A stretch of DNA of 64,000 nt from Bacteroidetes bacterium 43-93 (GTDB lineage Bacteria > Bacteroidota > Bacteroidia > Chitinophagales > Chitinophagaceae). Where the stretch lies: contig MKUO01000018.1 in the NCBI GenBank assembly GCA_001897855.1, positions 147,513-211,512 of the forward strand. Direction: 5' to 3'. Both the position numbers and the translations under genes were made by a program. The notes under the pieces were generated by a model, which worked only from the letters and a program-made list of their open reading frames with translations, ran no database searches and had not been told where the DNA came from. Shown here piece by piece: positions 44,143 to 62,525 of the stretch. Position 1 is the stretch's first letter; every line of letters begins with the position of its first letter.

Positions 44143-44216
44143 GCTCTGGCGGAAATATGTACGGTAATTTAATTAACTATCATTTAATATTGTGGAATAT
44201 TTTATTAAAAAATCAT

Positions 44217-44780
44217 TTAAAATATCTCTTTCGCCCTTTTGTAATAGGCTTCGCGGCCGGCAAGGCCGTTTTGTCCACCGTTAATAAGATAAGTTATGTA
44301 CTCGAACGGGCTATAACCGTGCTTTTTACTCCGCCAGGTATCGGGCAAATCCGCATACTTATTTAATTGCATTTTATTCCAGAACCAACCGGCAGATAGG
44401 CAGGCATATTGCGGTGTCTCCAATAACTGAGGATGCACAAGTAGGGTATTGATATCTCCAAACAATTCTTTGCTGCATTCCATATAATTATTGCGGCCGG
44501 TACATTGTATCAAACCCCGGCCTTTGTACTTCATACCATCACCCGGATGGATATTGCCTAGGTCTCTACGCCCTTCATATGCCCTACCATTGGCTAATTC
44601 TTTCGTATATCTGAAGCCGCCACTTTCGTGTGCCAGTTGCGCGATAAACATACAAATGCGTAATCTCGTTGTAATATCATAACGCTCCATGGTTTTATTT
44701 AGATAGGGAATAAAAACATCGGCATTTTTAGGAAGAAAGGGAACAGTATGTTGCAACTGTTCCATTGTTATGTAATTCAT
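44217..44780 (-). CDS. glycoside hydrolase family 19 endolysin
   Basis: FIAQLAHESGGF, GDGMKYKGRGLIQCTGRNNY, INGGQNGL; no signal peptide. Confidence 0.93.
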   Translation of the reverse strand: MNYITMEQLQHTVPFLPKNADVFIPYLNKTMERYDITTRLRICMFIAQLAHESGGFRYTKELANGRAYEGRRDLGNIHPGDGMKYKGRGLIQCTGRNNYMECSKELFGDINTLLVHPQLLETPQYACLSAGWFWNKMQLNKYADLPDTWRSKKHGYSPFEYITYLINGGQNGLAGREAYYKRAKEIF

Positions 44781-44800
44781 AGTGTTATTTTATTGGGGTT

Positions 44801-45373
44801 TTAGCGTTTAAGTAGCAGGCGGATCAATACGTACGCAATGAGGGTAACAACCAACCATTTTGCCCATAACAGGTAGACCCTGTCTTTTGCAAGTTTGGTA
44901 GTTGCATCCTGCAATTGTTGTTTCAGTGAATACTCGGCAGCGCGGTCGACCACACGCTTATAATTATTGATAAACACCGTATCGATACGCAGTTTTATAA
45001 ATGGCTTATATAACATCTTTTCAGGATGTTGTTCAGGAAAGACCTTGTCCTGAGGCACAGATTGCTCATATATTTTTTCTGTATCTCTTATGTATAAGGG
45101 TATGCCTTCTTTGTAAACCGTATTGATGGCTGCACTGTCTGTAGCAGGATAAAATGCTGCGCATGCGGCAGCCATTATATCAGGATGATGGAGCTGGACA
45201 CGTGCTATTTTGCGTTGGGCAGATCTTTCTGCATTGCAACTACAAAACATTAGCAGGCATACAGTAGTTAATGCCAGAGTCCAGGCGGAGAGCAGTGTGA
45301 CGAGCGAGGTTTTAGGTTGATGATGTTTCCATATTGATACAGTTTTATGGTGTGTTATTATCAGTAGATTCAT
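44801..45373 (-). CDS. candidate unimolecular spanin (N-terminal lipobox + C-terminal TM)
   Basis: LLMFCS|C lipobox; C-terminal YLLWAKWLVVTLIAYVLIRLLLKR; between holin and endolysin; start uncertain. Confidence 0.6.
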   Translation of the reverse strand: MNLLIITHHKTVSIWKHHQPKTSLVTLLSAWTLALTTVCLLMFCSCNAERSAQRKIARVQLHHPDIMAAACAAFYPATDSAAINTVYKEGIPLYIRDTEKIYEQSVPQDKVFPEQHPEKMLYKPFIKLRIDTVFINNYKRVVDRAAEYSLKQQLQDATTKLAKDRVYLLWAKWLVVTLIAYVLIRLLLKR

Positions 45374-45599
45374 TTTCTTCAGGTATAATGCCAAACATTT
45401 TTGATAAGCCAAGTACGATGATGTCAAGGCCTTTTAGGTAAAGCAGGATGCGCACTTTCATCATATCGGGTATAGAGGGGTCGCCGGCCACAACAAAAGC
45501 AACTGCTGTAGTTAGTATTGTGGTGATTCGAAACCCCCATTTTGCCCAAACGGGTGTTTCTAATAAGATACCATCTGTACCAAATTTTAAATTTTTCAT
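45345..45599 (-). CDS. putative holin (2 TM)
   Basis: 84 aa, two hydrophobic segments, charged C-tail, in lysis cassette. Confidence 0.6.
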   Translation of the reverse strand: MKNLKFGTDGILLETPVWAKWGFRITTILTTAVAFVVAGDPSIPDMMKVRILLYLKGLDIIVLGLSKMFGIIPEENESTDNNTP

Positions 45600-45604
45600 A
45601 GTGT

Positions 45605-45844
45605 CTATTTTTGAAGTTTATATTTAAGAATTTCAATATCGTCAGCATTCTTTGCGACCTCCCGCTCTACATAATCCAGTCGTTGGCCTTGCATACGGTA
45701 CTCGGCTTTGTTTTCCTGGATAGCAATCATAACATTCAGGTACAGCCTTACACCTACGCTTACACATGCGATAGCAGAAAGGATAATTGTCCAGACGAGT
45801 TTTAATGTTATACCCCTTAATTCTTTTTGTTCCACGTTTGTCAT
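45605..45844 (-). CDS. small 1-TM + coiled-coil protein (holin/antiholin-like)
   Basis: LVWTIILSAIACVSVGVRLYL TM followed by heptad-rich tail. Confidence 0.5.
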   Translation of the reverse strand: MTNVEQKELRGITLKLVWTIILSAIACVSVGVRLYLNVMIAIQENKAEYRMQGQRLDYVEREVAKNADDIEILKYKLQK

Positions 45845-45862
45845 AGTGATAGTATTTAATAT

Positions 45863-46606
45863 TTATGGGATGCCCCATTTATTGGTTGTATATGCTCTTA
45901 CGGCCGCATCATTAGGTGTACCGCCCTGGTATATATAAATACCTTTGATACTGAGACTACTTGTGTTAGTGCCTATATAACCGATGCCGATTGGCGATGA
46001 AGCTGTAGCAGTACCCACTGATCCGATGACGGAAGAAGTATTGACGGACAGTGAAGAGGAACTGCCATTCCAGCTACCTTTGAATAGATAATAAGTACTA
46101 TTGACCGGATGCAAAGACGCCAGACTAAGTGTGCCGGTATTCGCATATATCTTAAATGTGTTGGTACTACTTGCCCGTTCCACATCCATAAAAGAATTTG
46201 TGGCACCATTATCATAAAACATAATAGCCCCGTCACTATTCGCTATGATATTTACAGCTGCAACAATATAAATGGTATAGGGCTGAGACAGGGAAGCAGA
46301 CTGATACATGGCCTGTCCTGAGGATCCCTGGAAAGTAATTGCATTAGTACCATTCCAAACAGGTTTTAAGGTGGCATTAGATTGCAGCCAGTTTCTACCG
46401 TTCCCACTCTTATCATTCCATTGACTGACATTATTAGACGATTGAGTGATAGAAGATGCATCATCCGCTTCGTAATATGCCCAAAGATTAGTTGCGGGCA
46501 GTGTGGGAGAAGCTGTCGCGCTATATTTCCACCCATTAACAATTATGCGTTGTGCATGCAGATTAAAGAACGATACGCAGCACATGCTAAAAAATAACTT
46601 TCTCAT
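45863..46606 (-). CDS. LamG/concanavalin-like lectin-fold protein with Sec signal peptide
   Basis: MRKLFFSMCCVSFFNLHA|Q; YYEADDASSI..VSQWNDKSGNGRN; start overlaps fibre stop (TAATG at 46608-46604). Confidence 0.65.
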   Translation of the reverse strand: MRKLFFSMCCVSFFNLHAQRIIVNGWKYSATASPTLPATNLWAYYEADDASSITQSSNNVSQWNDKSGNGRNWLQSNATLKPVWNGTNAITFQGSSGQAMYQSASLSQPYTIYIVAAVNIIANSDGAIMFYDNGATNSFMDVERASSTNTFKIYANTGTLSLASLHPVNSTYYLFKGSWNGSSSSLSVNTSSVIGSVGTATASSPIGIGYIGTNTSSLSIKGIYIYQGGTPNDAAVRAYTTNKWGIP

Positions 46607-48852
46607 TAGAATCCTTGTGTTAATCCTGTACAATCCCATTTACTATCAGCGCCGTTATAAACAAACATTATGTACATAGTTTTACCGGCAACAGTAGTTG
46701 TTGGCAAAGCAAAATCAGATCCCGCCCGGTAACTGGCAGCCCAGCTAAGCGCCCTGGTAGTTCCATTGTCCTTAATTCGTACAAGCAACGTATTGTGATT
46801 TACAGCAGTACCAGAAGGAGCCGAAAAGCTTGCATTCGTGGCAAGTGCAGTTATGTCCAGATAATTTTCCCGTCCATCACCTTGTGGCGCCGGCGTTGCA
46901 GAAGAGGTAACACCACCTTCAACATATTGCACCAGGGTGCCCGATATGGTTGGGACAGTCATAGTACCTGTATTTATAAAGGAAGATATTACCGGTGCGG
47001 TTAAAGTTTTATTAGTCAGTGTTTCCGTACCTGCTATGGTAGCAAGTGTACCGGTTAACGGTAGGGCTATATTTGTAGCTCCAGTTGTTGTAAGCGTCAG
47101 TGCATTGGCACCGCTGGTAGTTAAAGAACCAGCAAGCGTAATATCACCGGCTATATCGATAGACCTGCTTGCATCATTCAATTTTAAATTTAGTAGCCTA
47201 TTGGCTGTTAAAGTTTCATTCGGCTTTATGGTCAAGGTATTCGCAGATGCTCCTTTAATATTCAGTCCTGACTGGCCAAGCGTAACACTGGAGATATCAG
47301 TATTTATCCCTGTGGCAGCTTTTGCATTTAAAGCTGTGTTCAAATCTATTTGCGAGGAAAGAGTACCTGTGATGGAACCCCAGGTCGCGCCACTACCATG
47401 TGCAACCCATCCTGTATTTCCGGTTCCGGATTCTTTAACGTAGAAAGTTGCACCAGAGCTTCCGTCAGTACGGGTATAAACACTACCTACTGGAGCTGAG
47501 ATTACTGCATTAGGACTTCCCGTGCCTGCGCTTAAGAAAGCGGTAGTATTGCTGATAAACGCCTTAGTCTTAATAGTAAAATCTCCTTGTACACGACAGG
47601 TACCACCTACATCAAATTTAAAGCCACCATCAGAATTATTTGTTGCTCCAACCGAAACATTAAAAGTGGAAGGAAACACCTTTATGACGGCGCTGGTCAG
47701 ATCATTAATAGAAGTATTATTTAGATAGCCGCCTATTCCCAGCGACCCATCATGATTAAACCGTGCCAGTATTTGCGCAGCGGCATTATTACCGGCGATG
47801 CCCGCAGAAGTTGAAGATGCTAAATAAAAACAGCCAGAACTACTTGATTGAGCCATACCCAAAACTTGTCCGAAACCATTCTGCCTTAAAACCAAAGCCG
47901 GATTCAAATAAGCGTTATTACCGATAAACGCATTAGACAATACACCCTGAGCTTCAAGAGTACCTATTTGTGCTCCTACTATTGTCGTTGTGGAGGGTAA
48001 GCTAAGACCAATATTATTTTGCGCCGGGACTGTAATTCCCACGGTACTTCCGTTGTCGCGAATAACCCCATTACCTAACGTATTAACTCCGGTAAATACA
48101 GGAACTCTTCCGCTACTTCCTGAAATATTTGAATTAAATCTCGTATCAAACCTACTATTTGTCCAATATAAATTACTGCCTTCAGCAAGGTTTGTAGTTG
48201 TCTTGGTGGCTAGTCTCGCATCCCATAAACTATTAAAATCTGTTATCCCGTATCCACCAATTGTAGTAGGTGTTGCGGTAATAGTATTCCATTGCTGTGT
48301 GCCTGTGTGATTAGCTCGATTAAGAAAGTAAGAGCTATTAAACCCATTTAAAAATGAAGCATTCAAAGCAAATTTAGCAGTATCGGCATAGAGCGCGCTA
48401 TCGACCTTTTCCATGGTAGAAAGCCAGGGCACAGCTATTGTATTACCATTACTGATAGCAATATGCTGGCTGTCTGGCAGAGAAAGTGTTTGTAACTCGT
48501 TGGTAATACTTCCATCTACTTCTGTAGCCAGGTATCCAAAAGATTTAATCCTGCTATCCAAAGCACCTATGCTGTCCTTCAGCCTGCTAACAGTCGCGTA
48601 TGTGTTGCTATCCACGGCAATTGAAATGCCAGCACATTTATCTCGTAACTGCAGATTACCTAAAGAATCTATGCCAATGACTTTACAGGTATCCGTTGTT
48701 GCATATCGCAACAGCCGCACTACACTATCCACGTGCAACGATCCCATTACCTGGTTGCTGTCTCTTTTATTGATACTTCCTAAGGGCTTAGTTGTTTGGG
48801 CTATTGTATTCACAGAGTACAATAGTGCTAATATTCCTATATTTTTTTTCAT
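46606..48852 (-). CDS. tail-fibre-like protein with Sec signal peptide
   Basis: MKKNIGILALLYSVNTIA|Q; NRANHTGTQ, TPTTIGGYGITD, TNLAEGSNLYWT, APVGSVYTRTDG..YVKESGTGNTGW, WGSITGTLSSQIDL, ETLTNKTLT motifs. Confidence 0.75.
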   Translation of the reverse strand: MKKNIGILALLYSVNTIAQTTKPLGSINKRDSNQVMGSLHVDSVVRLLRYATTDTCKVIGIDSLGNLQLRDKCAGISIAVDSNTYATVSRLKDSIGALDSRIKSFGYLATEVDGSITNELQTLSLPDSQHIAISNGNTIAVPWLSTMEKVDSALYADTAKFALNASFLNGFNSSYFLNRANHTGTQQWNTITATPTTIGGYGITDFNSLWDARLATKTTTNLAEGSNLYWTNSRFDTRFNSNISGSSGRVPVFTGVNTLGNGVIRDNGSTVGITVPAQNNIGLSLPSTTTIVGAQIGTLEAQGVLSNAFIGNNAYLNPALVLRQNGFGQVLGMAQSSSSGCFYLASSTSAGIAGNNAAAQILARFNHDGSLGIGGYLNNTSINDLTSAVIKVFPSTFNVSVGATNNSDGGFKFDVGGTCRVQGDFTIKTKAFISNTTAFLSAGTGSPNAVISAPVGSVYTRTDGSSGATFYVKESGTGNTGWVAHGSGATWGSITGTLSSQIDLNTALNAKAATGINTDISSVTLGQSGLNIKGASANTLTIKPNETLTANRLLNLKLNDASRSIDIAGDITLAGSLTTSGANALTLTTTGATNIALPLTGTLATIAGTETLTNKTLTAPVISSFINTGTMTVPTISGTLVQYVEGGVTSSATPAPQGDGRENYLDITALATNASFSAPSGTAVNHNTLLVRIKDNGTTRALSWAASYRAGSDFALPTTTVAGKTMYIMFVYNGADSKWDCTGLTQGF

Positions 48853-49265
48853 GGTGTTGTTACATATTGAAAGTCTATTTCTCCGGAGATCATTCCATCT
48901 CCTATTTCATATCCGCTAAAATCCAGGTAGGGTGTTTGTCCTTCCTCACCAGGCTGATCTTTCTTATTTTGAATCACACACAGCTTTGCCCATTTAAATG
49001 GTGCACCATCTACAAAAATGATGGGAGCCAATTGATTTCTAAATAAATTACTGTACACAATATTTATAGGCATATCTACTAACACATTACCCCATTGCCA
49101 GCTTATTCCATCAGCACCTTTAGCACCTTTCGGCCCCATATTGATTAATTGTATTTCAAACCTATTTCTGACAGCAGGTTGTATTTGATATACACTTCGG
49201 GCAGGCGTTTCAATTTTGATAATATTGGTACAGCCCTGTTTCACAATTACTATTCCAAAACTCAT
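48849..49265 (-). CDS. tail-region protein with short collagen-like stub
   Basis: GPKGAKGADG; ATGA overlaps on both sides. Confidence 0.5.
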   Translation of the reverse strand: MSFGIVIVKQGCTNIIKIETPARSVYQIQPAVRNRFEIQLINMGPKGAKGADGISWQWGNVLVDMPINIVYSNLFRNQLAPIIFVDGAPFKWAKLCVIQNKKDQPGEEGQTPYLDFSGYEIGDGMISGEIDFQYVTTP

Positions 49266-49600
49266 CCGTTAATATTTACTTCGCCGTTAACAATGGTTTT
49301 GATCTCATCTGCAACCTGTCTGCGAATACGGAAACAATATTTATCACACAAGTCAATACTATTCCAAAAGGTTATATCGATTGCAAACGAAGCTATCACT
49401 TCACCGGCATCCAATGTAGCGGTGAGGCTATTGGCGATTGCATAATCGCGACGATGGACATCCAGGGTAAAAGTGCAGCCATGAAGGCTTTGAACTACGC
49501 CGGTTGCATCCGTAATTTGTATATCAATATTTCCTGTGTCCTGGTAACGTAGCACAAGGGTGCTTTGCTGGCTCACGTCCAGCTCTAATTTTGATGACAT
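49262..49600 (-). CDS. BppU-N-like baseplate/fibre anchor domain
   Basis: 112 aa beta-rich; LHGCTFTLDV...YCFRI...KTIVNGEVNI pattern. Confidence 0.5.
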   Translation of the reverse strand: MSSKLELDVSQQSTLVLRYQDTGNIDIQITDATGVVQSLHGCTFTLDVHRRDYAIANSLTATLDAGEVIASFAIDITFWNSIDLCDKYCFRIRRQVADEIKTIVNGEVNING

Positions 49601-49645
49601 ATAAAAAGGGTTTAGGTTGTCTGGTTTAAAAGTGTTCCTCTGATG

Positions 49646-51535
49646 TTAATCAGTAATAATTCTCCATTTCATATTATTAAAGGCAGTCCTTGCAGTGGAA
49701 GATGCTGATGTAGGCGGGGCAGAAATAGTATTATGTGATAGATCTATCGCAAATGAATTGTATCCATAGCCTATTTTACAGTAATTGTAAAATTCATTGA
49801 TAAAATCATCTACCGCAGTGCTTGTAAGAGTATTATACGTAATCCCGGTGTAAATCAATTTTGCAAAGGGCTTATAACCAGCTGATGCCAATGATGATGC
49901 CCAACCCGGAACAATTTTCTCAATACTGCACCTATCAAGATATAAAGCCTGGAGACTGTCTTTGGCAGGCGCAAGAAACGACAAATCAAAACCAGTAGCT
50001 CCACCCAAAGCCAAATGTGTGAGACGCAGAAAGGTAAGGTTAGCCGATATCCTGCCCGTAATATTTGAGACAGCCGCTACCGGACTAAGCGAATTCCTGA
50101 TGATTTCAAAATTCACTTCCTCATCCCGATGAAATATACGTACCGCTTGTGCGCCGGTTGTCGCAAACTCGTATGCTACTGTGCATGTATTACCACTGCC
50201 GATATTAGTAAACAAATCTTCCGTACCGGACGTAGCAGCAAAGCAGGCAACATGCATATGCAGCTTACTATCAGCGTAGGTCACCTTGTATTGCATGTAT
50301 CGTTGCGATGGATAAGATGTTACAGCATTCAGAACTAACATGTTAGGGTATATCTGCAACGGAAGTGGCTGATAATGATAAAATCGCTCACCCGGTGCGT
50401 TAATAAGAAATATGTCATTACCATCACGTTCTAAAACTGTAGCGTGCCCCGCCGCCGCAATATTTGTATTAAAACTTCCCACCCATGCATCAAGGCCCAA
50501 ACTATCATCAAATACTCTGGCAAAAGAGCCTTGCGCATTTAATACTGATATCATTGTAAAATTATCTGTAATGACACATTGATTAATTGCAAAAGGAAAA
50601 TCAACAGCGGTAAATAATTTTATTCTTCGTTGCGTGAATGTGTATCCGTCGTCACTGTCTTTTTGCCTGAGTGTTACTGTGCGCCATTGTACATGCTTAT
50701 CCTCGCTGCCACTGCGTTCCAGTTTACCATCCTGCCAAACATATTCACGGCCATCTACTCTAAAATATCCATCCTTACAACATTGCAACGAACGGTTCAC
50801 TACATCTATCATGTACTCAGGCAAGCCGGTATACCCTCCTATATCCCATTTAAATACATTGTATGCTTCCGCATCCAGTGTTACAGTATTGCGGTCCTGG
50901 TCTTCAAACACAGTATAATCACCACCCGGTTCATAGCTCATGCCGTTACTTTCTATTCGGTAGGCAAACCTTGGCATTAGTTGTTCAAACAACACATCAT
51001 GTCCATTTGTTAGCTGATTATACTCTACAAGGGATGTACCCGGATGATTTGCACTTAACAAGATAGGATTGCTCCTGTAATTCAAAATATCGGTCACTCC
51101 GTTGAAATACCAGATCATATCAAAATAGATATACTTTTTCCCGGCAAGCTCAGGAATAGACGCAGGCGTGAACAAAAACTGCTCTGTATATAGCTGCTCA
51201 CCAGTTATGCCATCTACTACACCGGATAACGCGTAAGAAGATGTAAGGCTTACAACCTTTAGCAGCGTATTGCTACCTACTTCAAAGATCCGCAGCTCGC
51301 TTGGGTTAGTTACATTGGTATTATCACCTGTACGTCCGCGATGATAATGAATACATACGGGATCATTCAGTCCCAGCTTTTGATAATATTGCTCACGGAC
51401 CTGTCCCGGACGAATGGCATCTATCTGCAATGCGTCGCCAAAGGCGGGATAGCCCCATCGATCACCTGGAAATACAGCATCAACTTCTGCAAAACGATAA
51501 GGGTTTATAGACGGAAACCGTACTATTATTGACAT
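49646..51535 (-). CDS. tail tip / receptor-binding-like protein with C-terminal LRR-like segment
   Basis: position after hub; LTFLRLTHLAL, LQALYLDRCSI, ITYNTLTSTAVD. Confidence 0.5.
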   Translation of the reverse strand: MSIIVRFPSINPYRFAEVDAVFPGDRWGYPAFGDALQIDAIRPGQVREQYYQKLGLNDPVCIHYHRGRTGDNTNVTNPSELRIFEVGSNTLLKVVSLTSSYALSGVVDGITGEQLYTEQFLFTPASIPELAGKKYIYFDMIWYFNGVTDILNYRSNPILLSANHPGTSLVEYNQLTNGHDVLFEQLMPRFAYRIESNGMSYEPGGDYTVFEDQDRNTVTLDAEAYNVFKWDIGGYTGLPEYMIDVVNRSLQCCKDGYFRVDGREYVWQDGKLERSGSEDKHVQWRTVTLRQKDSDDGYTFTQRRIKLFTAVDFPFAINQCVITDNFTMISVLNAQGSFARVFDDSLGLDAWVGSFNTNIAAAGHATVLERDGNDIFLINAPGERFYHYQPLPLQIYPNMLVLNAVTSYPSQRYMQYKVTYADSKLHMHVACFAATSGTEDLFTNIGSGNTCTVAYEFATTGAQAVRIFHRDEEVNFEIIRNSLSPVAAVSNITGRISANLTFLRLTHLALGGATGFDLSFLAPAKDSLQALYLDRCSIEKIVPGWASSLASAGYKPFAKLIYTGITYNTLTSTAVDDFINEFYNYCKIGYGYNSFAIDLSHNTISAPPTSASSTARTAFNNMKWRIITD

Positions 51536-51687
51536 TTTCTAAAAAAGGGTTTATGGTTATAGTTTATTTTTATGGCAATGGCATCTACTATTGCCATAAA
51601 AGACAATCAGCTATTTATCTAATGTTGTTAAAGGATCAATCAGTAAATATGATTTACTTTTAAGCAGACCACATCACAACATTTCCT

Positions 51688-52284
51688 CTATTTCTTGCCT
51701 GGTTCCGGCTGATTTAATATATCACTTATGATATTAACGTTCTGCAATACCTTAAATTGGGGATCGAGATATTCGTTCATCTCTACATCATTTGTGATGA
51801 TATCTCCTGAGAAATATATTTTGTACTGAACATAGTAATAAGCAAATTTCTGAGCATCCGCATTTTTAGCAGCTTTATCAAGGCTATCTTTTTCTTTCTG
51901 ATCCCTTGCGGTATACTTAAGGTAGTTCTCTGCCCGTGTCAAATCTTTTTGGTATGCATTCTCTTTGTAAGCAGGCACTTCCATGTGGTTTCGATGATAG
52001 GAATCAATTTCGGCAGAATCATCTTTAGCTTGTGCAACAGCCTCCTCGTATCCGTAATGATAACTCTCTATAGCGGAGATGGCCTCTTTAATACGATTGT
52101 TTATTGCCTGCTTTTCCGTGTATTTATCTACTTTCAACACTACGATACTATCTATCCGTTGATGTTTGCCCGCATCCAGGCCTGTAGAATGAAATTGTGT
52201 CAGGCTATCTTTTATTTTTTCTTCGGTACTTGTATTACCGCAGGCAGATAGTAAAACACAAACTGGTAAAAGGTATTTATACAT
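51688..52284 (-). CDS. lipoprotein moron inserted in the tail operon
   Basis: MYKYLLPVCVLLSA|C lipobox; flanked by intergenic gaps, unlike the coupled neighbours. Confidence 0.7.
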   Translation of the reverse strand: MYKYLLPVCVLLSACGNTSTEEKIKDSLTQFHSTGLDAGKHQRIDSIVVLKVDKYTEKQAINNRIKEAISAIESYHYGYEEAVAQAKDDSAEIDSYHRNHMEVPAYKENAYQKDLTRAENYLKYTARDQKEKDSLDKAAKNADAQKFAYYYVQYKIYFSGDIITNDVEMNEYLDPQFKVLQNVNIISDILNQPEPGKK

Positions 52285-52337
52285 AATTGGCTTTTTGATG
52301 GCTAAAAATAACACAGTTTATCTAACGCGAAAAAAAA

Positions 52338-54494: not shown

Positions 54495-57230
54495 TTATCG
54501 TTTATTGTGGTGATTGATGTATGTGATCCTTGATGCAGCTCTTTTCTGAACAGTAACTATCTCCCCATACCTTACGGCAATGGTTGTTTCTGTCTTATTA
54601 TTTACAGCATTTACTATTCTATTGATGCCAGCATTAAATGCGGCCGTATTATCGCCGTATTGCGGAGATAGTGTTGGCAATGCAGACAACATAGTGGGGA
54701 GATCCTGCAAATGCATCTTATGCAATGGTATTACCCGCGCACCGTGCGACAGATCAGGTATTAGTGTGGGTTGTGATACCCAATAGCCTGGTTTTCCTTT
54801 TTCCTTTACATATTCAGGCTTATTCTTTTCACCCACTATTGCAGGACCGCCCGGGTGGGCGTCTGTACCCTCGGCATATTGCGGAGTGCTGGTACCGGCA
54901 AGCGCGCTGATCACGGTAGCCATATATGCGGCTACAGCTGCTCCCGTGCCAATACCTATAACACCACCCTTTTCTACCTCTTCTGCAATACCTACATATA
55001 GTGCAATCGTAGCCTTTAGTATCGCCATGCCTTTTTCGTAATTCGCCTGCCTGCTTTTGCGCGCAGCCTCCTGTTGTGCAATACCGGCCTGCCGTTGCTG
55101 TGTACGTGCATCTATATCTGCAAGACGCTGGTCTTTTTCTTGCTGGGTAAGTATGCTGTTACTAACTGCCTGCTTTTCCAGATCTGACTGTTTATTAATA
55201 TCATCCCCTTGTTTTTGCAAGCGCGCCAGGTCTTTATCCGTTTTGTTCTTTGCTATAGAATCCAGAGCATCAAACACGCTACCAACGATCTGCTGTAATG
55301 ACTGCATATCTGCAGCTTGCTTTTCCTGTGCAGCTTTTGAGTCTTCTACAATCTTTTCATTCGCATCCCGGGTACTCATTACCCTTGCATCGTCAAGCTG
55401 GCTTTGTAACTTCTTCCTGTCAGAGGCAGACATATCTTCATTACCCAATATCTCCCGCAGGTAACCGATCGTGTCGCCAAGATTCTTTTTGCCATACTTG
55501 TCATTTAGCGCACTTACACTTTCCTGGTACTGCGCGTAACTGATCTCTTTATTCTTCAGACTGTCTATCAGTGCCTGCTCATCCGCCGCGTATAGTTGCT
55601 TATTTGCGTCCGCAATAGCCTTTAGAGCTTTCTCATGTGCTTTGGCCTGCAAACCATCAATATCAGGGGTAATGTAGACAGGTACGGTTTCGCTATGAGC
55701 ATCAGATGCACCGGGAAGAGATACTGAGTGTTTTGAAGAATTAGTAACAGAAGCTTTAGGATTATTTGTTGGCTTAGGTACAGAAGTGCGTTTTGAATTA
55801 TTAGCAAGCTTGTTATTAGCCGCCAGTGTAACTTCCAAATCGTCATTAACCTGGTTAATATCTCTTTTCAACTGGTTAATTCGGCCATTAAAAGCCTTAA
55901 CATAAGTATCAGAAGTATTTATAGATGACGCAATAAGCTGTGCTTGTTTTCGTGCTTCCTGCTCTGTAACACCTGTTACCTGTTTGATAACATCTATTAA
56001 TTCTTTACTACTTGCAAGTTCTCTTCTCGCCCATTCTGGTTTGTACTTCCCTAAAAGAAAATTATATTGTTCATTAGCAGTATTACTCAAATATTCATAA
56101 GCCCCTTTTTCAACTTCAAGGTCTTGAACTCTGGCCGCTGCCACTTTCTTTTCCTGTTCATTAATAACAGAAATCGCAGCTCCCTGCGCTTTAAGCAATT
56201 CCAGTTTATGTTCCTCCTTCTGTGTATTACCTTCTACCTGGTTTGCCTGTCCTCTTATCCTGTTTATCTCCGACTGTTTTGAGATCATAGCTGCAAGTGA
56301 ATCCCCTAAACCTTTTAAAGCCTCTTTTGTTCGCCTGGCCTGCTCCTCATCCTGCTTCATAGAGTTGGTAAAGAAACCCAATGCTGTTACCGCTAAATTT
56401 ATAATACCCGGCAAACCCGTAAACGACCCTCCAATAGCAGTCAATATACTTCCCCAGCTCTGCCCTTCTGACCGTGCCTTTACTACATGCTCTGCAAAAT
56501 CAGCAATATGACCGGAGAGTGCTTTGATAAATTCGCCAGGGCTTTGTGCCAGTTTGGGTAATTCGCCCAACATCTTATTAAACTGCCCACTCACCCCTTT
56601 ACAGGCATCTACCTTGCTTTGATAAGACGCTACCTGGGCACCTGCCGCATTTAATTGTGTACCGAGGTTTTGCGCATGGCCGATGGCATCTTTGGTTTTA
56701 GTATTAAAGCCATCGGTAGCTGTACCTGCCAATACCTGTGCTGCTGCCAGTTGTTTGGCATTATCGCTGGCATCTTTGTATTGCTTCTTTAGCTGCTCAT
56801 AGCTGGCATTGAGGTTGCGTGCATTGGCAGCCTCCTGCGCCGCTTGTGCTGCAAGGCGTTCGCGCTCTTTGTTCAATGCGCCGATGGCTGTAGCCAATGC
56901 GGCGGCACCATCAGTTTCATCTTTCCTGTTCTTACTGCTTTGTGCGGTAACAGCGGCGATGGCATCTGCAAGCGTCTGCTCCTGCTGCTTTACCGCCAGT
57001 AGCTTTTCCAGCGATGCCTTGTGGGCGTCTACTGCTGTGGTGGCTGCTTTGATGGCGGCCGTACCTTGTGCCATGGAATTGCTATCTGTAACAAACAGTT
57101 CGCTGGCGCGCATTTGTTTAGATGCTGCGGTAATGTGTGCTACCGTATCGTCTATGATGGCGATCACCTGCTGCTGTTGTGCCTTTATCTCCTCTACACC
57201 AAATAGCTGGTCTAATTTATCGGTGGGCAT
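54495..57230 (-). CDS. tape measure protein
   Basis: 911 aa, Ala/Gln/Lys-rich helical; central and C-terminal hydrophobic Gly/Ala segments; YAEGTDAHPGGPAIVGE motif. Confidence 0.85.
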   Translation of the reverse strand: MPTDKLDQLFGVEEIKAQQQQVIAIIDDTVAHITAASKQMRASELFVTDSNSMAQGTAAIKAATTAVDAHKASLEKLLAVKQQEQTLADAIAAVTAQSSKNRKDETDGAAALATAIGALNKERERLAAQAAQEAANARNLNASYEQLKKQYKDASDNAKQLAAAQVLAGTATDGFNTKTKDAIGHAQNLGTQLNAAGAQVASYQSKVDACKGVSGQFNKMLGELPKLAQSPGEFIKALSGHIADFAEHVVKARSEGQSWGSILTAIGGSFTGLPGIINLAVTALGFFTNSMKQDEEQARRTKEALKGLGDSLAAMISKQSEINRIRGQANQVEGNTQKEEHKLELLKAQGAAISVINEQEKKVAAARVQDLEVEKGAYEYLSNTANEQYNFLLGKYKPEWARRELASSKELIDVIKQVTGVTEQEARKQAQLIASSINTSDTYVKAFNGRINQLKRDINQVNDDLEVTLAANNKLANNSKRTSVPKPTNNPKASVTNSSKHSVSLPGASDAHSETVPVYITPDIDGLQAKAHEKALKAIADANKQLYAADEQALIDSLKNKEISYAQYQESVSALNDKYGKKNLGDTIGYLREILGNEDMSASDRKKLQSQLDDARVMSTRDANEKIVEDSKAAQEKQAADMQSLQQIVGSVFDALDSIAKNKTDKDLARLQKQGDDINKQSDLEKQAVSNSILTQQEKDQRLADIDARTQQRQAGIAQQEAARKSRQANYEKGMAILKATIALYVGIAEEVEKGGVIGIGTGAAVAAYMATVISALAGTSTPQYAEGTDAHPGGPAIVGEKNKPEYVKEKGKPGYWVSQPTLIPDLSHGARVIPLHKMHLQDLPTMLSALPTLSPQYGDNTAAFNAGINRIVNAVNNKTETTIAVRYGEIVTVQKRAASRITYINHHNKR

Positions 57231-57981
57231 ACTCCTCCTGTTGTTTTTGGTTTAGCAAACGTTCTGCATGTGCGTTGTATCTCTTTAGCGATATGCAATA
57301 GTCATACACGGTCATCTCCTCTGCAAGGCGCGTTACGGGGGTGTTATACCCTTCAAACTTGCGCAGCTCTGCCAGTTGCTCCAGGAAATAATCTTCGGTA
57401 ATGATTGTGTTGCTATTGCTCCTGTTATGATCGTCCTGCAATTCTTTTTCCAGCTGTTCTTTCTTTACCTCCCAGCCTACCAGTTCGTTGCTGATGTATT
57501 GCAGATCGTCTTGCAGGGTTGCGGGTGTTAGCGGGTAGTCAAACCCGTCTTCCTTCAGCTCTGCCACAATACCTGCATGGTAATGCGTAGCCAATGCCTG
57601 CATGTTCAGCCGTACCCGGTTGATGAAGAGTATATAAGCGTTCAGCAATTGTTGCCTTTCGCCTGCCTGTAGAGCGGCACCGTTGCCCGATGCATCATAG
57701 TACTGCAACTTCAGCGATTGCCATGCGGCAGCCAGTTGTGCCTCTGTAGGGTCTCCTGCCAATACCAGTGCATCCATATTGCCTTGTGTATAGCATTTGA
57801 TGAAGGCAGAGAGGCGCACCATGCGTATATCATCTGCTATCAGTGCAAAGGGTTCTTCTTCATGCGGCTTTGCTTCATTTTGGTAATGCTTCAGCAATGC
57901 CTGCGATACCAGGCGGATGCCCAGTTCTATTTGTTGTGCCTGCGTGCGTGCGGGTTTGTTCTTTTTATGTTTCGGTTTCAT
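57217..57981 (-). CDS. tail assembly chaperone-like protein
   Basis: helical, directly upstream of and overlapping the tape measure gene. Confidence 0.5.
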   Translation of the reverse strand: MKPKHKKNKPARTQAQQIELGIRLVSQALLKHYQNEAKPHEEEPFALIADDIRMVRLSAFIKCYTQGNMDALVLAGDPTEAQLAAAWQSLKLQYYDASGNGAALQAGERQQLLNAYILFINRVRLNMQALATHYHAGIVAELKEDGFDYPLTPATLQDDLQYISNELVGWEVKKEQLEKELQDDHNRSNSNTIITEDYFLEQLAELRKFEGYNTPVTRLAEEMTVYDYCISLKRYNAHAERLLNQKQQEEYAHR

Positions 57982-57988
57982 GGTATTA

Positions 57989-58237
57989 CTATTTATAACC
58001 TATGCCGGTAAGCTCGCTGATGCGATGTAACAAGGGCGTGCGCACATAGGTATCAAACAAATAAGCATTGGGGCCTGTGGGTGCATAAGGGGTTTGCTGC
58101 AATACATCTGTAAATGGCAGTGCAAAAGGTGTCGTAGTGTTATCTATATGCAGGCCACTATCTTCTACCGCTGTGGCTACTGCTTCATGCACATCTACTG
58201 CCTGCAGCCTCTTCTTCATTTCTAATGCGTATGCCAT
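57989..58237 (-). CDS. short tail-completion-like hypothetical protein
   Basis: 82 aa between tube and chaperone genes. Confidence 0.35.
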   Translation of the reverse strand: MAYALEMKKRLQAVDVHEAVATAVEDSGLHIDNTTTPFALPFTDVLQQTPYAPTGPNAYLFDTYVRTPLLHRISELTGIGYK

Positions 58238-58251
58238 AAGGGAGATAAAGA

Positions 58252-58274
58252 CAGGGCGCGGCTTACACGCCCTG
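58252..58274 (-). terminator. intrinsic terminator inside the late operon
   Basis: CAGGGCG-N9-CGCCCTG followed by TCTTTATCT on the minus strand. Confidence 0.6.
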
Positions 58275-58289
58275 CTTTGGTTTTATTGG

Positions 58290-58580
58290 TTAAGGGTTTA
58301 CAGGGGCTTCGCTATGGGTATCGCTACCTTTGCGTGTATTGTTCTTCTGCTTCTTGCCGGTAGTTTCTTCCGGTGCATCTGTTTTGGTGCTTTGCATACA
58401 TTTGTTGTACACTTCTGTCAGCGCCTGCGTTCTTTCTTCGGGCTGCAGGTGGGCGAAGTATTGCTGCCCTGCCATTGCCAGCCATTCTTCAAGAGGCATA
58501 GCAATTACAGCCGGTATGTAAAAGTTCACCGCATCAATACCACTATCCCATGCAAGGTGTTCTGCGTGTTGCTTCATCAT
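58290..58580 (-). CDS. small hypothetical (tail chaperone-like) protein
   Basis: TAATG-coupled to the tail tube gene; charged C-tail. Confidence 0.5.
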   Translation of the reverse strand: MMKQHAEHLAWDSGIDAVNFYIPAVIAMPLEEWLAMAGQQYFAHLQPEERTQALTEVYNKCMQSTKTDAPEETTGKKQKNNTRKGSDTHSEAPVNP

Positions 58581-59548
58581 TAGGATGCAGTTATGGTCAA
58601 TACATTAGATTCGTGGTACTTAACACCCAGGCCTGCCAGGGTCGCAATATCTGCCTGCTGCAGGTATAGCTTATCGCCCGCGGTACCGTATGCACCTGTA
58701 GTAGTGCAGGTAAGGGTAAAGGCTACCTTTTCCGTGCCTTCTGATTTGATGGTAACACCCGATATAGTTACGGCTGCACCACTGGCATTTACCAGCTTCC
58801 AGGCTGTTACCACATTTAGTATGGCAGCATACTTAGACACCAGGTTCACCTGTCCGTCAATGCTCTTCAGCGCTATATCAAACACACCCGGTGTGCTGCC
58901 TGTAGTAATGTTCTCGAGCACCGTATCTTCTACACCGCGCAGGCCCTGCAACGGGTGAAAGGGGTTGAAGCCAAGATCTGTATGCTTTGCTTTCTTCTTC
59001 TCGTCGATATCAGCCAATGCTATACGCAGCTGGTACTTCACAGCCTTGCCCTGGTCGGGTTCTTCAAAAGGCAATACCTCCAGCTGGTGAATGGTAAGCC
59101 CACAGATACCGGTATCGGTAGTAAGGTGTTGCAGGTTCCAGTTCTCATCTATAAAGGCAACGAGGTAGCCCTTGCGCAGGTGAAAGTTTTGCAGCGACTG
59201 GTATTCGGCCCAGGTACATTCCACTACAAAGGTCATATCCCACGATCCTTTGTCGGTAAAGGTCTTGAGCTGTCCGCGTGTTTCGCGTGCAGGTGCCTCC
59301 CCGTTAGATGTAGGCATGTGCAGCTTGTGAATGAAGAAGGCGCGGCTGCCATAGGTTTGGTTGGTAAGCAAAGACTGCAATGCGGTTTTGCGCGTGGCAG
59401 CAGTTGCCAGGTCGGCCGTGCTTAGCAGGTCTGCATCGTATGGGTGCAGTATAGCGCCGCGTATCTTACCGGGGTCAAACTTACCGGTACCGGCACTGTA
59501 ATTGCCTGCAGCATTTTGTGTTACTTTATTAATTACGCTCTGTGGCAT
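58580..59548 (-). CDS. major tail tube protein
   Basis: GTGKFDPGKIRGAIL, VAFIDENWNL; position after neck genes; extra beta-rich C-terminal domain. Confidence 0.65.
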   Translation of the reverse strand: MPQSVINKVTQNAAGNYSAGTGKFDPGKIRGAILHPYDADLLSTADLATAATRKTALQSLLTNQTYGSRAFFIHKLHMPTSNGEAPARETRGQLKTFTDKGSWDMTFVVECTWAEYQSLQNFHLRKGYLVAFIDENWNLQHLTTDTGICGLTIHQLEVLPFEEPDQGKAVKYQLRIALADIDEKKKAKHTDLGFNPFHPLQGLRGVEDTVLENITTGSTPGVFDIALKSIDGQVNLVSKYAAILNVVTAWKLVNASGAAVTISGVTIKSEGTEKVAFTLTCTTTGAYGTAGDKLYLQQADIATLAGLGVKYHESNVLTITAS

Positions 59549-59576
59549 GTTGTTTAAAAAGGTTTAGGTATTGTTC

Positions 59577-60131
59577 TTAAAATCTTGATCGTAAAAAAGG
59601 ATCGTAGGTGCATTGCATATTGTAGCGGAAGCAATGCCATGGATGGGTATCAAACTTCACCATATCTGTTTTGCTAAGGCCGGGATATTCCTGCAGCACT
59701 CTTTCTATCCCTGTCACTTCGCTCTTCATAATGAACTGGTGCATCTCGTACTTCAGCATCTCCAGCACATCGCGGCGCACTTCTACATCGGCACGGGCCA
59801 TTTGTGGTTTTATCTTCGCCAGGTTGATGAAGAACACCAGGTGTACATCTGCCGTCTGCGATTTATAATTATCTATAGTGATGTTGCTGCCAATACCAAA
59901 GAAAGAGTGTACGGCCACACTGTCATCCAGCAATAGTTCTTTATAATCGTTGTTGTTGGTAAACACCTCAGGCACGTAGCCTGCATCTTTGCGATTGCGA
60001 TACACACGGCCGTAGCAGTTATACTCATCTGCGGCAAGCTCCCATACATCCTGCAGGTAATCGTACAGGTCTTGCTGCATATCCTGTATCCATACATCTA
60101 TACCCACCGGGCGATATTTAGTATATATCAT
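59577..60131 (-). CDS. neck / tail-terminator-like protein
   Basis: 184 aa, ATGA overlap with the upstream gene; directly before the tube gene. Confidence 0.45.
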   Translation of the reverse strand: MIYTKYRPVGIDVWIQDMQQDLYDYLQDVWELAADEYNCYGRVYRNRKDAGYVPEVFTNNNDYKELLLDDSVAVHSFFGIGSNITIDNYKSQTADVHLVFFINLAKIKPQMARADVEVRRDVLEMLKYEMHQFIMKSEVTGIERVLQEYPGLSKTDMVKFDTHPWHCFRYNMQCTYDPFLRSRF

Positions 60132-61228
60132 ATTGCAGGGTTTTGGATGGTGATGGACGAGGATCTTTTATAGAAGGCATCGCGCAGGCGTTTTACCTCT
60201 TGCAGTATCTGCCCTTTGAGGCCCGTGGTATAAGGATTATCGGCAGTGGTTACCTGGTTCAGATCGCGGTAGAGGACGGCTAGGTTCTCTTTACCCATAC
60301 GCTCGCGGGCATTGCCCCGGGCACTGTTCTGCACTATCTCTATCGCCCTTGCCGCCATCATCAGCCCTTGCAGGTTATCAAACAGGTGCGCATTGTTCAC
60401 AATGGTTTCCGTCATATCGCGATAGCTGCCCAGCTCTGCATTCAATCCATACATGCCTGCGCTGCAACCATAGGTCTCCCTGTCAAAGTCTGCACCATTA
60501 GCTTTCGACTCAAACGATACTCCGCCAAACACATGGTAACAATTGGCAGCTACACTATAATCGTAGGCACGCACCGCACCAAGATCATCCTGGAAATAAC
60601 CGAGAAACCATTCGCCGCCCTTTACCACATCGGTAGCGTTGTTAATGGCATAGTTGAGCGCTACAGATGTTTGGCTATTGCCCTTTGCCGCTACCTGCCA
60701 CTTCTTTATATATGGAACATCGGTAAGCACATTATCTACCGTATCGGTGCCATTGGTTAGGGAGTGAAAGAGGTAGAGCGGGAAGCTTACATCTGCATTA
60801 AAGAAGAGTATCGCATTCTTCAGCAGTACACCATAATCACCATCGCTCACTTTAATGCGTATGCCGCAGAAGTTGCCGTTATTGGCTACAGGGTTATGCG
60901 CTGTGTTTACCGCTTTACGGAACAGTAAACCACCACCTACATACTGCGGTGCATCAAACACTGCATTGAGTGCAGACATAATAACCGACCTGCGGAGCTG
61001 TACCAGGTAAGCATTAAAATCATCTTCAGTAATATCCGCATCAGGCTGGCAATCGTACAGGTTCTCTATCAGCAAAGAGGCGTGAAAGCTGCCATCATTA
61101 TAATACCTGCCGCTTTCGCTTTGTGTGTTGTCGCAGTCTACCACATCATAGCCTTTGGTGGTGGGTTGCAGCCAGCCAATACGCTCCATTGCAGGCAGCA
61201 CAAGGGCTGCGTTATATCCGTTCGTCAT
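60128..61228 (-). CDS. head-tail adaptor-like protein
   Basis: follows the capsid gene; helical N- and C-termini around a beta-rich core. Confidence 0.4.
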   Translation of the reverse strand: MTNGYNAALVLPAMERIGWLQPTTKGYDVVDCDNTQSESGRYYNDGSFHASLLIENLYDCQPDADITEDDFNAYLVQLRRSVIMSALNAVFDAPQYVGGGLLFRKAVNTAHNPVANNGNFCGIRIKVSDGDYGVLLKNAILFFNADVSFPLYLFHSLTNGTDTVDNVLTDVPYIKKWQVAAKGNSQTSVALNYAINNATDVVKGGEWFLGYFQDDLGAVRAYDYSVAANCYHVFGGVSFESKANGADFDRETYGCSAGMYGLNAELGSYRDMTETIVNNAHLFDNLQGLMMAARAIEIVQNSARGNARERMGKENLAVLYRDLNQVTTADNPYTTGLKGQILQEVKRLRDAFYKRSSSITIQNPAI

Positions 61229-61255
61229 GGTTTATGGTTTAGGGAGATGTATGTA

Positions 61256-62281
61256 TTAAGCACCTACGCTTATAAGATGTACCGGGCTATCACTCGCTGC
61301 AGACAGTGGTGGTACACCCCAGCCTACCCATGCAGATATTTCCCACTGATCCAGCACATCCTGCACGCCGCCGCCATTGGCGCTTTCATCGCCACGCTTG
61401 CTATACTTAGATACATCAAACACAAAGCCCGAACCGAACGGATCTAACAAAGTGCCAAACATACCTACTTCGTTATCGCCTGCATCCATGCCTTCTTTAT
61501 TCAGCGGATCGTTCCAGTTAAGTGCTTTGAACGTACCTGCAGGCATGATGAAAGCAGCACCGTCTGTATAGCTTGCAGAGATCACTTCTGATGTTGCCGC
61601 CATACGAACACCCTGCATTTGGGGCGCAAGGTTGGTACTGTTGCCCGCGCCTTGCCACATGGTACGCTCCAGCGATGGCCACAGTTGCAGATCGGGGATC
61701 ATATCCAGGTCGCCACGGTACAGGCGGCCACGCATAAAGGTTTTAGAGAGCTGTGTAAAATAGTCGAGCTTAGCAGCGGGTATTTCCAGTGCATGGTTGG
61801 TACTGTTCCACGTACCGGCGCCTGATGTTGCAGGGCTGGTAAGCTGGCAGGTGTGGGCTGCAAGGTAGGCAAGGCCCAGGGTTTCCATGCGGTCTTTAAG
61901 ATTATCAACAGCCTGTTCTATCTCGTGCTGAAACATGATCTTAGCGCCAACGGCATTGTTCTGTGCCTGCTTGCGGCTCATGTAGAATGTTTCGGTAAGA
62001 CATTGGTAGGCGAGGTTCAGCGTACCGCTATCGCCTTTGGTGCCTGTGTGCAGTGCTACCTTTGCGGTGCCACTGCCGGGTGCGCGTTGTTTCAGGTATT
62101 TTACTTCTACCACGCGGCTTTCTGCTGTCTTCAGCGATTCCCAGTCGGGCAGGGTGTATTGGGCATTGTTCAGTGCCATCGTCAATACGGGACGTTCTTT
62201 TCTACGCAGTTCGGCTTCGTTGTATTTTGTGGCGAGCGTAGTTTGGGCATTAGTCAACAGACTGGATGCATAATTTGCCAT
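61256..62281 (-). CDS. major capsid protein-like (HK97-fold inferred)
   Basis: 341 aa from MANYASS; HTGTKGDSG loop, spine-helix-like QHEIEQAVDNLKDRMETLGLAYL; first gene of the late operon. Confidence 0.6.
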   Translation of the reverse strand: MANYASSLLTNAQTTLATKYNEAELRRKERPVLTMALNNAQYTLPDWESLKTAESRVVEVKYLKQRAPGSGTAKVALHTGTKGDSGTLNLAYQCLTETFYMSRKQAQNNAVGAKIMFQHEIEQAVDNLKDRMETLGLAYLAAHTCQLTSPATSGAGTWNSTNHALEIPAAKLDYFTQLSKTFMRGRLYRGDLDMIPDLQLWPSLERTMWQGAGNSTNLAPQMQGVRMAATSEVISASYTDGAAFIMPAGTFKALNWNDPLNKEGMDAGDNEVGMFGTLLDPFGSGFVFDVSKYSKRGDESANGGGVQDVLDQWEISAWVGWGVPPLSAASDSPVHLISVGA

Positions 62282-62308
62282 TTTTAAGAGGAAAATTGAG
62301 AAAGATAC

Positions 62309-62394
62309 CGGGCACCGCCCGTAGATATTTGGAGTACCACTCCGTGTGCTTTGGGGAGACATCCCCTTAGAAAAGAACAAACAACCACCGGCTG
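62309..62394 (-). promoter_or_regulatory. structured 5' leader: four short hairpins, three with GGU triloops
   Basis: CAGCC-GGT-GGTTG, GGGGA-TGTC-TCCCC, GGAGT-GGT-ACTCC, CGGGC-GGT-GCCCG. Confidence 0.65.
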
Positions 62395-62404
62395 TATTGT
62401 GATA

Positions 62405-62412
62405 CAAAATTA
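62405..62412 (-). promoter_or_regulatory. host-type sigma70 -7 element for the capsid-like gene
   Basis: TAATTTTG matches TAnnTTTG, 124 nt upstream of the ATG. Confidence 0.65.
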
Positions 62413-62525
62413 GGAAAAACTTTTCTTCTGAAAAAAAATTATTTTTTCTTCAGTACGCATATCATTACCTCTAAAACCTTTACAGTAGCGGATTTTAAGG
62501 GATAAAACTTTTTTAAAAAATATCT

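Follow-up and report, generated by a model that had tools for sequence, protein, structure and literature searches.

Why would a bacterium keep and transcribe the capsid, tail and lysis genes of a phage when the portal and packaging genes that belong with them are missing? The question is raised by a locus in Bacteroidetes bacterium 43-93 (Chitinophagaceae; assembly GCA_001897855.1), which we analyzed within a window of 64,000 nucleotides (nt) of contig MKUO01000018.1 (positions 147,513–211,512 of the forward strand). Coordinates below are those of the window unless another sequence is named. Nineteen co-oriented open reading frames (ORFs), read along the minus strand between 62281 and 44217, form a set of siphophage late genes that begins with the major capsid protein and ends with an endolysin. 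This set is an anciently truncated late operon that has a conserved promoter and leader, is inherited vertically, is under selection and is transcribed. Its gene content suggests a domesticated particle locus, most likely one that resembles the F-type tailocins, and on balance we judge this probable, if far from certain. A first-pass annotation, made from the DNA letters alone, had proposed a candidate domesticated phage-derived particle system. That proposal is supported by the shared truncated locus, by ratios of non-synonymous to synonymous substitution (dN/dS) of 0.02–0.12 in the main structural genes, and by transcripts.

When the proteins of the closest relatives served as tblastn queries against the 64-kb window and the 10 kb past its end, no gene for the terminase subunits TerS and TerL, the portal, the scaffold or the cement protein was detected. 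Integrase, repressor and replication genes were not found in the window or its flanks. The first-pass annotation had also reported packaging, integration and replication genes to be absent, and this held for the window and the additional 10 kb. No att repeats were seen, a comparison of the two ends of the element having given no common direct repeat of at least 10 nt. A functional temperate prophage was rejected because integrase, repressor, replication, terminase, portal and scaffold genes and att repeats were all not found.

The capsid protein has 117 homologues, many of them on contigs of 44–52 kb. Outside its own cluster, the closest relatives (65–68% capsid identity) are L014, a chromosomal prophage, and L016, a contig of 49 kb; in both, TerS, TerL, portal and scaffold genes stand directly 5′ of the capsid gene, which is followed by a cement gene. 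The remaining relatives with upstream sequence have portal and scaffold genes before the capsid gene, to which several add TerS and TerL; only L007 departs from this pattern. The complete prophage L043 also encodes DnaB, a methylase and an integrase-family gene. Because distant relatives (capsid identity ≤69%) carry TerS-TerL-portal-scaffold directly upstream, the locus is, judged by its gene content, a truncated member of a family of ~48-kb Pan5-like temperate siphophages. The cement gene, present in L007, L014 and L016, is absent here between the capsid and adaptor genes. L007 itself, in a Flavipsychrobacter metagenome-assembled genome (JANINW010000097.1, 1–11000), keeps TerS, a TerL fragment of 126 amino acids (aa) and the scaffold gene and is without a portal. 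Roughly 7 kb of host-like genes lie between its scaffold and capsid genes, and in this interval DUF6731, PAS histidine kinase and FIST genes are on the opposite strand. By this layout, L007 is a separate, independently decaying copy. No remnants of the head-module genes were found at the window locus or at four other loci that carry the operon (L041, L045, L046 and L047).

These four loci bear on the age of the truncation. All sequences compared are metagenomic. The first ten contigs with identical proteins were 100% identical to the window and represent one clone from thiocyanate-bioreactor and wastewater metagenomes, which also includes GCA_017308155.1 and a 1.57-Mb ENA scaffold; strain diversity came from sequencing runs and members of the 90% protein cluster only. 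In an activated-sludge run (X14), contigs cross both ends of the element at 2–3% divergence. L041, L045, L046 and L047, of which L047 lies on a contig of 1.8 Mb, carry, in order, DoxX, a 275-aa gene, a 170-aa gene, the leader and the operon from the capsid gene onward. The window, L041 and L045 form clade A, and L046 and L047 form clade B, which is known only for the first 10 kb of the operon. The junction of 170-aa gene, leader and capsid gene is the same, and collinear base for base, in the window, X14 and all four loci; the junction between the endolysin gene and a type IX secretion system (T9SS) gene is the same in X14. At least five lineages, in two clades, thus carry the truncated layout at one and the same position in the chromosome, and every member of the capsid-protein cluster whose context was checked shows it. 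One cluster member is named Flavipsychrobacter sp., of the family Chitinophagaceae.

Since the same junctions recur in independent assemblies of at least five lineages, and the flanks of the two clades differ at a synonymous divergence (dS) of 0.5–0.7, the truncation is not recent. Its pattern points to an old event followed by vertical descent at one chromosomal site in the Flavipsychrobacter lineage. A recently truncated prophage was rejected, given junctions shared across species-level divergence. An assembly misjoin near 62.4 kb, a concern of the first-pass annotation, is ruled out by independent assemblies that span both ends. The comparison of synteny and dN/dS across relatives that it had recommended found the cluster not to be strain-specific and dN/dS to be far from 1. 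Searches of GTDB representative genomes with the capsid protein, the flanking histidine kinase and the 275-aa gene returned no close relative and no empty site, and a capsid-protein scan of IMG/VR did not find the element.

Is the operon merely slow to decay? Divergence was estimated by the method of Nei and Gojobori, in which recombination may inflate or deflate single dS values. Between the clades, the flanking host genes (T9SS cargo, DoxX and the 275-aa gene) have dS of 0.50–0.73 and dN/dS of 0.05–0.16. Corresponding values are 0.27–0.35 and 0.02 for the capsid protein, 0.66–0.79 and 0.05–0.08 for the adaptor, 0.46–0.64 and 0.04–0.10 for the terminator, 0.43–0.50 and 0.03–0.04 for the tube, and 0.43–0.51 and 0.07–0.12 for a 254-aa protein. 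Two small ORFs (96 and 82 aa) are less constrained (dS 0.29–0.76, dN/dS 0.2–0.4). Within clade A, dS is 0.07–0.18 in the flanking host genes (DoxX, T9SS cargo and the 275-aa gene) and 0.11–0.30 in the conserved genes of the element; the dS of the element (0.3–0.8 between clades) follows that of the host flanks at both levels. The window and L047 differ at 445 of 4401 aligned coding bases (~10%), and 80% of the differences fall at third codon positions. This alignment contains no stop codon where ~15 were expected, and none of 2000 neutral simulations was stop-free. The ORFs checked were all intact. Variants called from reads agree: synonymous and non-synonymous changes numbered 33 and 1 for the capsid gene, and 33 and 7 for the genes of the tape measure, chaperone and tip. 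The pattern of substitution argues that the operon is under purifying selection in its host.

A functionless defective prophage, either repaired by recombination with circulating relatives or slow to decay, would be an improbable source of this pattern. Recombination has clearly replaced the distal tail module, the divergence between strains is mosaic (blocks of 0% beside blocks of 3–4%), the window strain has a frameshift-like change in its spanin gene, and the nearest more distant relative, L007, is visibly decaying. Repair would, however, call for a donor. The capsid-protein cluster (12 distinct sequences) is 98–100% identical and the next protein, among 5.8 billion, is 69% identical; because nothing lies between 69% and 98%, no active phage donor is visible, and the checked cluster members all have the truncated layout. 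The lack of stops at 10% divergence, the match between element and host-flank dS, and a non-coding leader that is nearly invariant likewise speak against a functionless remnant. The same dS relation counts against a phage satellite (PICI, cf-PICI, P4-like or PLE), as it indicates vertical inheritance, and satellite genes (integrase, own replication, redirection of helper packaging) were not found among the genes of the element; this candidate was rejected.

How is the operon expressed? The promoter and 5′ leader occupy 62282–62500 on the minus strand. The promoter, TAATTTTG at 62405–62412, is of the TAnnTTTG type, and the leader contains three tandem hairpins with GGU triloops and differing stems (62381–62395, 62331–62343 and 62309–62321) and one GGGGA/TCCCC hairpin (62353–62366). 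Clades A and B hardly differ over approximately 190 nt of this promoter and leader, whereas neighboring genes have dS of 0.3–0.8. Complete relatives have a TAnnTTTG motif 111–207 nt 5′ of the capsid gene, several of them with similar tandem hairpins, and the same type of motif precedes the capsid gene in Pan5. The first-pass annotation had called this a host promoter, which was wrong: because complete phage relatives carry the same motif and hairpin leader before their capsid genes, the promoter and leader are, on comparative evidence, inherited from the phage lineage.

Tandem GGU-triloop hairpins also occur 35–181 nt before the capsid genes of L017, L018, L019, L020, L023 and L008 (Pan5), with three to four per leader, spacings of 22–51 nt and 5–6-bp stems of varying sequence. 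Across 19 leaders, 27 GGU-loop hairpins, which had been selected for pairing, were observed against 0.31 expected from shuffles. The folding energy of the whole leader was no better than that of shuffles (z = −0.69); the signal sits in the repeated small hairpins rather than in a global fold. An Rfam scan of 44–64 kb, hairpin leader included, gave no match. Its recurrence suggests that the hairpin leader is possibly a protein-binding regulatory RNA common to the phage family, including a cyanophage.

Four root metatranscriptomes contain contigs 95–100% identical to the operon; the first-pass annotation had named a lack of transcription or particles under any induction as a refutation of its proposal. 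Judged by contig depth, which gauges expression only roughly, most head and tail genes reach 3–14, and host genes in the same runs 0–68 (AdoHcyase 13–68; many others 0–5). RNA contigs end at 62369–62389, ~10 nt downstream of the start site expected from TAATTTTG, and 62390–62525 is covered by DNA contigs and by no RNA contig. The operon is transcribed in situ from the conserved promoter.

Expression at this level bears on whether the operon might have been co-opted for defense or interference, with an infecting relative triggering the late promoter and the resident proteins then poisoning phage assembly or causing early lysis in the way of abortive infection. In favor of this, promoter and leader are ultra-conserved and of the type seen in complete relatives; a lipoprotein slot, whose product could add superinfection exclusion, varies between strains, and the region 5′ of the operon gathers accessory insertions. 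We nonetheless consider defense an improbable role. Transcripts at neighbor-like levels in four environmental samples are unlike a silent trap, and a PADLOC search of the accessory ORFs gave no match. Early lysis would need the last 1.6 kb only, yet 16 kb of structural genes are intact, and no known phage capsid is more than 69% identical for co-assembly.

What could the encoded proteins build? The capsid gene (61256–62281; all genes of the operon are on the minus strand) specifies a 341-aa HK97-fold protein that matches phrog_7231 at 1e-29 and is 29% identical to the Pan5 major capsid protein. Its family profile matches the capsid in PDB entry 9ww9 at 4e-12. An AlphaFold2 model (pLDDT 81.5) was searched with Foldseek, and the best 50 hits were HK97-fold capsids and encapsulins throughout. 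The next genes encode a head-tail adaptor homologue (366 aa, 60128–61228; phrog_8189, and the "adaptor protein" Pan5_08 by tblastn at 2.5e-36) and a tail terminator homologue (184 aa, 59577–60131; the "tail terminator" Pan5_09 by tblastn at 3e-39). They are followed by a putative tail tube protein (322 aa, 58580–59548), assigned by the position and size of its gene and a weak match to Pan5_10 (2e-6). Three ORFs at 57217–58580 (96, 82 and 254 aa) have the position of tail assembly or completion proteins by synteny with relatives, and the 254-aa product matches Pan5_13 at 2e-9. The tape measure protein (911 aa, 54495–57230) matches phrog_339 weakly and has a C terminus like that of Pan5_14, and the distal tail (Dit-like) protein (718 aa, 52338–54494) matches phrog_15220 at 6e-28 and Pan5_15. 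Translationally coupled tail tip and fiber genes at 45863–51535 encode proteins of 629 aa (a tip protein whose N terminus resembles Pan5_16), 112 aa, 138 aa, 748 aa (a fiber) and 258 aa (fiber-associated).

Homology and a hydrophobicity scan identified a lysis cassette of four ORFs at 44217–45844. They encode a 79-aa holin-like protein with a single transmembrane segment, an 84-aa membrane protein, a 190-aa u-spanin-like protein with an N-terminal lipobox and a C-terminal transmembrane segment, and a 187-aa GH19-type endolysin (phrog_181 at 1e-56, and PF00182). The adaptor, terminator, tube-position, tape measure, distal tail and tip genes are collinear with the annotated genes of Pan5. Single-sequence searches of the PDB with the capsid, adaptor, tube and Dit proteins gave no match, the capsid profile alone having matched, and Pfam gave none for the structural proteins. 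No sheath homologue was found among all examined ORFs of at least 74 aa. The head and neck genes have a G+C content of ~49%, which drops to ~40% toward the distal end.

Much of this had been anticipated by the first-pass annotation. The ORF list reproduces all five overlaps that it gave for the coupled, co-oriented genes (those at 60128, 49262 and 48849 span 4 nt each, that at 58580 spans 1 nt and that at 46606 spans 34 nt). Homology and Pan5 synteny agree with its gene order from capsid to lysis, the Foldseek result provides, for the capsid protein, the confirmation of fold that it had advised, and its statement that there is no sheath stands for the ORFs examined. Its view that the large genes show no frameshift holds for the ORFs checked; one correction concerns the spanin-like gene. 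The window clone carries an extra nucleotide at 45329, relative to X14 and the root strains, right after the usual ATG of the u-spanin-like gene. Translation from the normal start would give a 6-residue peptide; an upstream ATG at 45373 brings the gene back into frame and adds 14 residues. The insertion may mark early decay of the lysis cassette in the window clone.

Do the strains differ where specificity would be expected to lie? The N-terminal 285 aa of the tape measure protein are conserved among strains (78–82%) and the rest is allele-specific, with alleles of 911, 870, 856, 857 and 881 aa that differ even within clade A. Dit alleles are 718, 735 and 746 aa long. With only 22–31% identity between the 718-aa window form and the 735/746-aa forms of sister lineages, the Dit-like protein is, by sequence comparison, a swapped module. 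The fiber-associated 258-aa protein shows 3 synonymous and 5 non-synonymous changes between strains. Swapping of the receptor-binding end fits a bacteriocin-like arms race.

Several other observations concern this distal region. The slot after Dit holds a lipoprotein gene of the moron type (198 aa, 51688–52284; signal peptide ending in LSAC), whose product had no family match in PHROG, Pfam and PADLOC-type searches of the window ORFs. In L041 (14861–15535) the slot holds an unrelated 224-aa lipoprotein on the opposite strand. The slot lipoproteins are candidate morons, possibly for superinfection exclusion. In one root RNA contig (X10), position 55721 is followed directly by 56420, so that 698 nt of the tape measure gene are skipped, and no RNA run covers ~55950–56615. 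A deletion was rejected as the explanation; because sister lineages carry divergent C-terminal tape measure alleles, the skip was read as the edge of an allele swap, probably a different allele in the root strain. In L037 (ENA KANT15-1 scaffold_7813; window 44120–47207), which is of the same clone, a single-base gap shortens the 258-aa fiber-associated protein to 246 aa and is either an assembly error or a polymorphism.

Taken together, the locus is the late operon of a ~48-kb Pan5-like temperate siphophage, with its own promoter and leader, capsid, neck, non-contractile tail, fibers and holin/spanin/endolysin genes, from which TerS, TerL, portal, scaffold and early genes were lost long ago. 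Since that loss it has passed vertically at one Flavipsychrobacter chromosomal site, with the host keeping the operon by purifying selection and transcribing it from the conserved promoter. Beyond this, the operon would build a phage-derived particle used by the host. Siphophage tails assemble independently of heads. Because of this, and because lysis genes are part of the operon, a non-contractile tail-like particle would be the simplest product; the likeliest form would be one in the manner of F-type tailocins, released by the operon's lysis cassette. Exchange of the distal tail module (the C-terminal part of the tape measure, Dit, tip and fibers) would shift its target range.

Several points weigh against this reading. 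The capsid and adaptor genes are among the most constrained, and a tail-only product gives no account of them; the F-type tailocins described have neither a capsid nor an adaptor gene. No regulator gene was recognized within or beside the operon. RNA coverage of the lysis genes is patchy (depth 0–6), and the spanin gene of the window strain has the frameshift-like change at its start. Low dN/dS could in part reflect import by recombination, which is clear in the distal module. Besides the roughness of contig depth as a measure of expression, some carry-over of DNA into the RNA libraries is possible, although the contrast in depth from gene to gene led us to read the signal as RNA.

So tight a constraint on the capsid protein and the adaptor implies that the two are still built into some structure, and a role for them without a portal encoded in cis is unexplained. 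One possibility, which we hold tentatively and as clearly less probable than the domesticated locus in general, is a phage-derived machine of a new kind in Bacteroidota, in which an operon without portal, terminase and scaffold genes of its own makes a particle that needs the capsid protein and adaptor. This would be either a tailocin with a capsid-like cap or shell or a head-tail particle completed in trans, retargeted by distal swaps and controlled through the leader with its GGU hairpins.

Alternatively, the operon might be half of a split, head-containing system like the gene transfer agents (GTAs) or PBSX, with portal, terminase and scaffold encoded elsewhere, in a relocated module or another prophage, and complete particles that package DNA or kill. 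Such a system is unlikely on present evidence. In its favor, the capsid (dN/dS 0.02) and adaptor (0.05–0.08) are constrained as in working phages. Adaptors are known to function only on a portal, in siphophage necks, and GTAs too are inherited vertically under purifying selection. The site between scaffold and capsid is also a break point in the family, as the ~7 kb of host-like genes at that position in L007 illustrate. On the other side stand the searches for cognate head genes. Nothing was found in the window with its additional 10 kb or at the four other loci, and the further searches covered proteins and metagenome contigs; all of these are soft negatives, so that possible head genes elsewhere in the genome count against the tailocin-like reading as well. 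A TerL protein search showed no source or contig signature of these genomes among the 120 of 2870 matches listed. In a TerL scan of metagenome contigs, none of the best 80 of 326 relatives (down to ~45% identity) came from the samples of the window clone or clade B (Ga0209934, Ga0136214, JAFKFR). A portal search gave 42 matches, none assignable to genomes carrying this operon. One TerL match (P0207, on a 1.72-Mb contig) had been suspected to come from the same genome and was rejected; it belongs to another organism, as part of a complete prophage of the family.

The first-pass annotation had offered four alternatives. Recent truncation has fallen, and a helper-dependent element is unsupported, given vertical inheritance and the lack of any signal for integrase, replication or packaging; a tailocin that kept a capsid gene and a split-locus GTA are indistinguishable here.

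Which known systems does the locus resemble? F-type tailocins such as the F-pyocins of Pseudomonas aeruginosa and the monocins of Listeria are, like this cluster, chromosomal, vertically inherited and derived from siphophages, with a sheathless tail gene set, their own holin and endolysin, and a receptor-binding end that varies between strains in an otherwise conserved cluster. The full non-contractile tail set, the lysis cassette and the fixed vertical locus with a variable specificity end are all present here. F-type tailocins have no head genes, in contrast to this cluster, which keeps capsid and adaptor under strong constraint; they also differ in that no regulator of the PrtN/PrtR or another type was recognized here, and in that the present system is known from its genes and transcripts. 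With the GTAs and PBSX-like elements (RcGTA, VSH-1 of Brachyspira, PBSX of Bacillus) the locus shares the order head-tail-lysis, a block of 16–18 kb, the absence of integration and replication genes, vertical inheritance and purifying selection on structural genes. Unlike it, RcGTA and PBSX encode terminase and portal in the cluster; here none was found in the cluster, in the 74 kb around it or in the soft searches for cognate copies. No description of a non-contractile tailocin or a GTA was found in the literature for Bacteroidota.

The Pan5-like siphophages and prophages (Pseudanabaena phage Pan5, ON968456; Polaribacter phages P12002L/S; L014, L043 and L016) have the same order from the capsid gene on, with capsid identities of 27–68%, and the same type of capsid-gene leader (TAnnTTTG and tandem GGU-loop hairpins). 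They differ in having TerS-TerL-portal-scaffold, usually cement, replication and integrase genes, all of which this element is without. Bobay and colleagues are said to have described, in PNAS in 2014, conserved defective prophages under purifying selection. Conserved defective ("domesticated" or "grounded") prophages of this kind have been reviewed (PMC8987985, PMC6379469). The locus shares with them the loss of essential functions, an orthologous position in diverged genomes and dN/dS far below 1, and on these sequence features it is in every respect a conserved defective prophage. Unlike scattered domesticated prophage genes, it comprises a coherent 18-kb late operon with its leader, conserved capsid included.

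The surroundings of the operon are those of a host chromosome. Two ORFs with signal peptides lie in the upstream flank, and a 1087-aa protein with a Por_Secre_tail domain is encoded 74 bp beyond the endolysin gene, in keeping with the two secreted genes and the T9SS gene that the first-pass annotation had placed there. Elsewhere in the window the genes are of the usual host types, encoding T9SS cargo proteins, a two-component system, ABC/FtsX transporters, AdoHcyase, DHDPS and AccA. At 6015–6863, a DUF4357 gene beside tRNA-Asp had zero RNA coverage in all four metatranscriptomes, its neighbors being expressed. The stretch upstream of the operon gathers insertions. In L046 (8656–9840), a 394-aa ORF with an RNDLVH (HEPN-like) motif and without a Pfam or PADLOC match lies between the 170-aa gene and the leader. 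In L047 (5721–9073), an RDD protein, two small ORFs and an IS1595 transposase lie between the 275-aa and 170-aa genes. About 8–10 kb beyond the window end (L001, 1–1907), small ORFs and a 785-aa AAA_13 ATPase gene, which may be of a defense type, lie upstream of the locus.

Tailocins, GTAs and contractile injection systems shape bacterial competition and gene flow. To our knowledge, the domesticated phage particles of Bacteroidota are contractile only, and this locus provides a concrete candidate for a non-contractile system in the Chitinophagaceae, a family often present in wastewater, soil and roots. A capsid protein held at a dN/dS of 0.02 across species-level divergence with no portal, terminase or scaffold nearby is a puzzle in its own right. 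If a second conserved locus supplies these functions, the phylum would have its first GTA- or PBSX-like system; the alternative, if true, would be a portal-independent use of an HK97-fold capsid protein with a tail. The swapping of distal modules amounts to a natural retargeting experiment, and the hairpin leader is a candidate regulatory RNA common to free-living phages, including a cyanophage.

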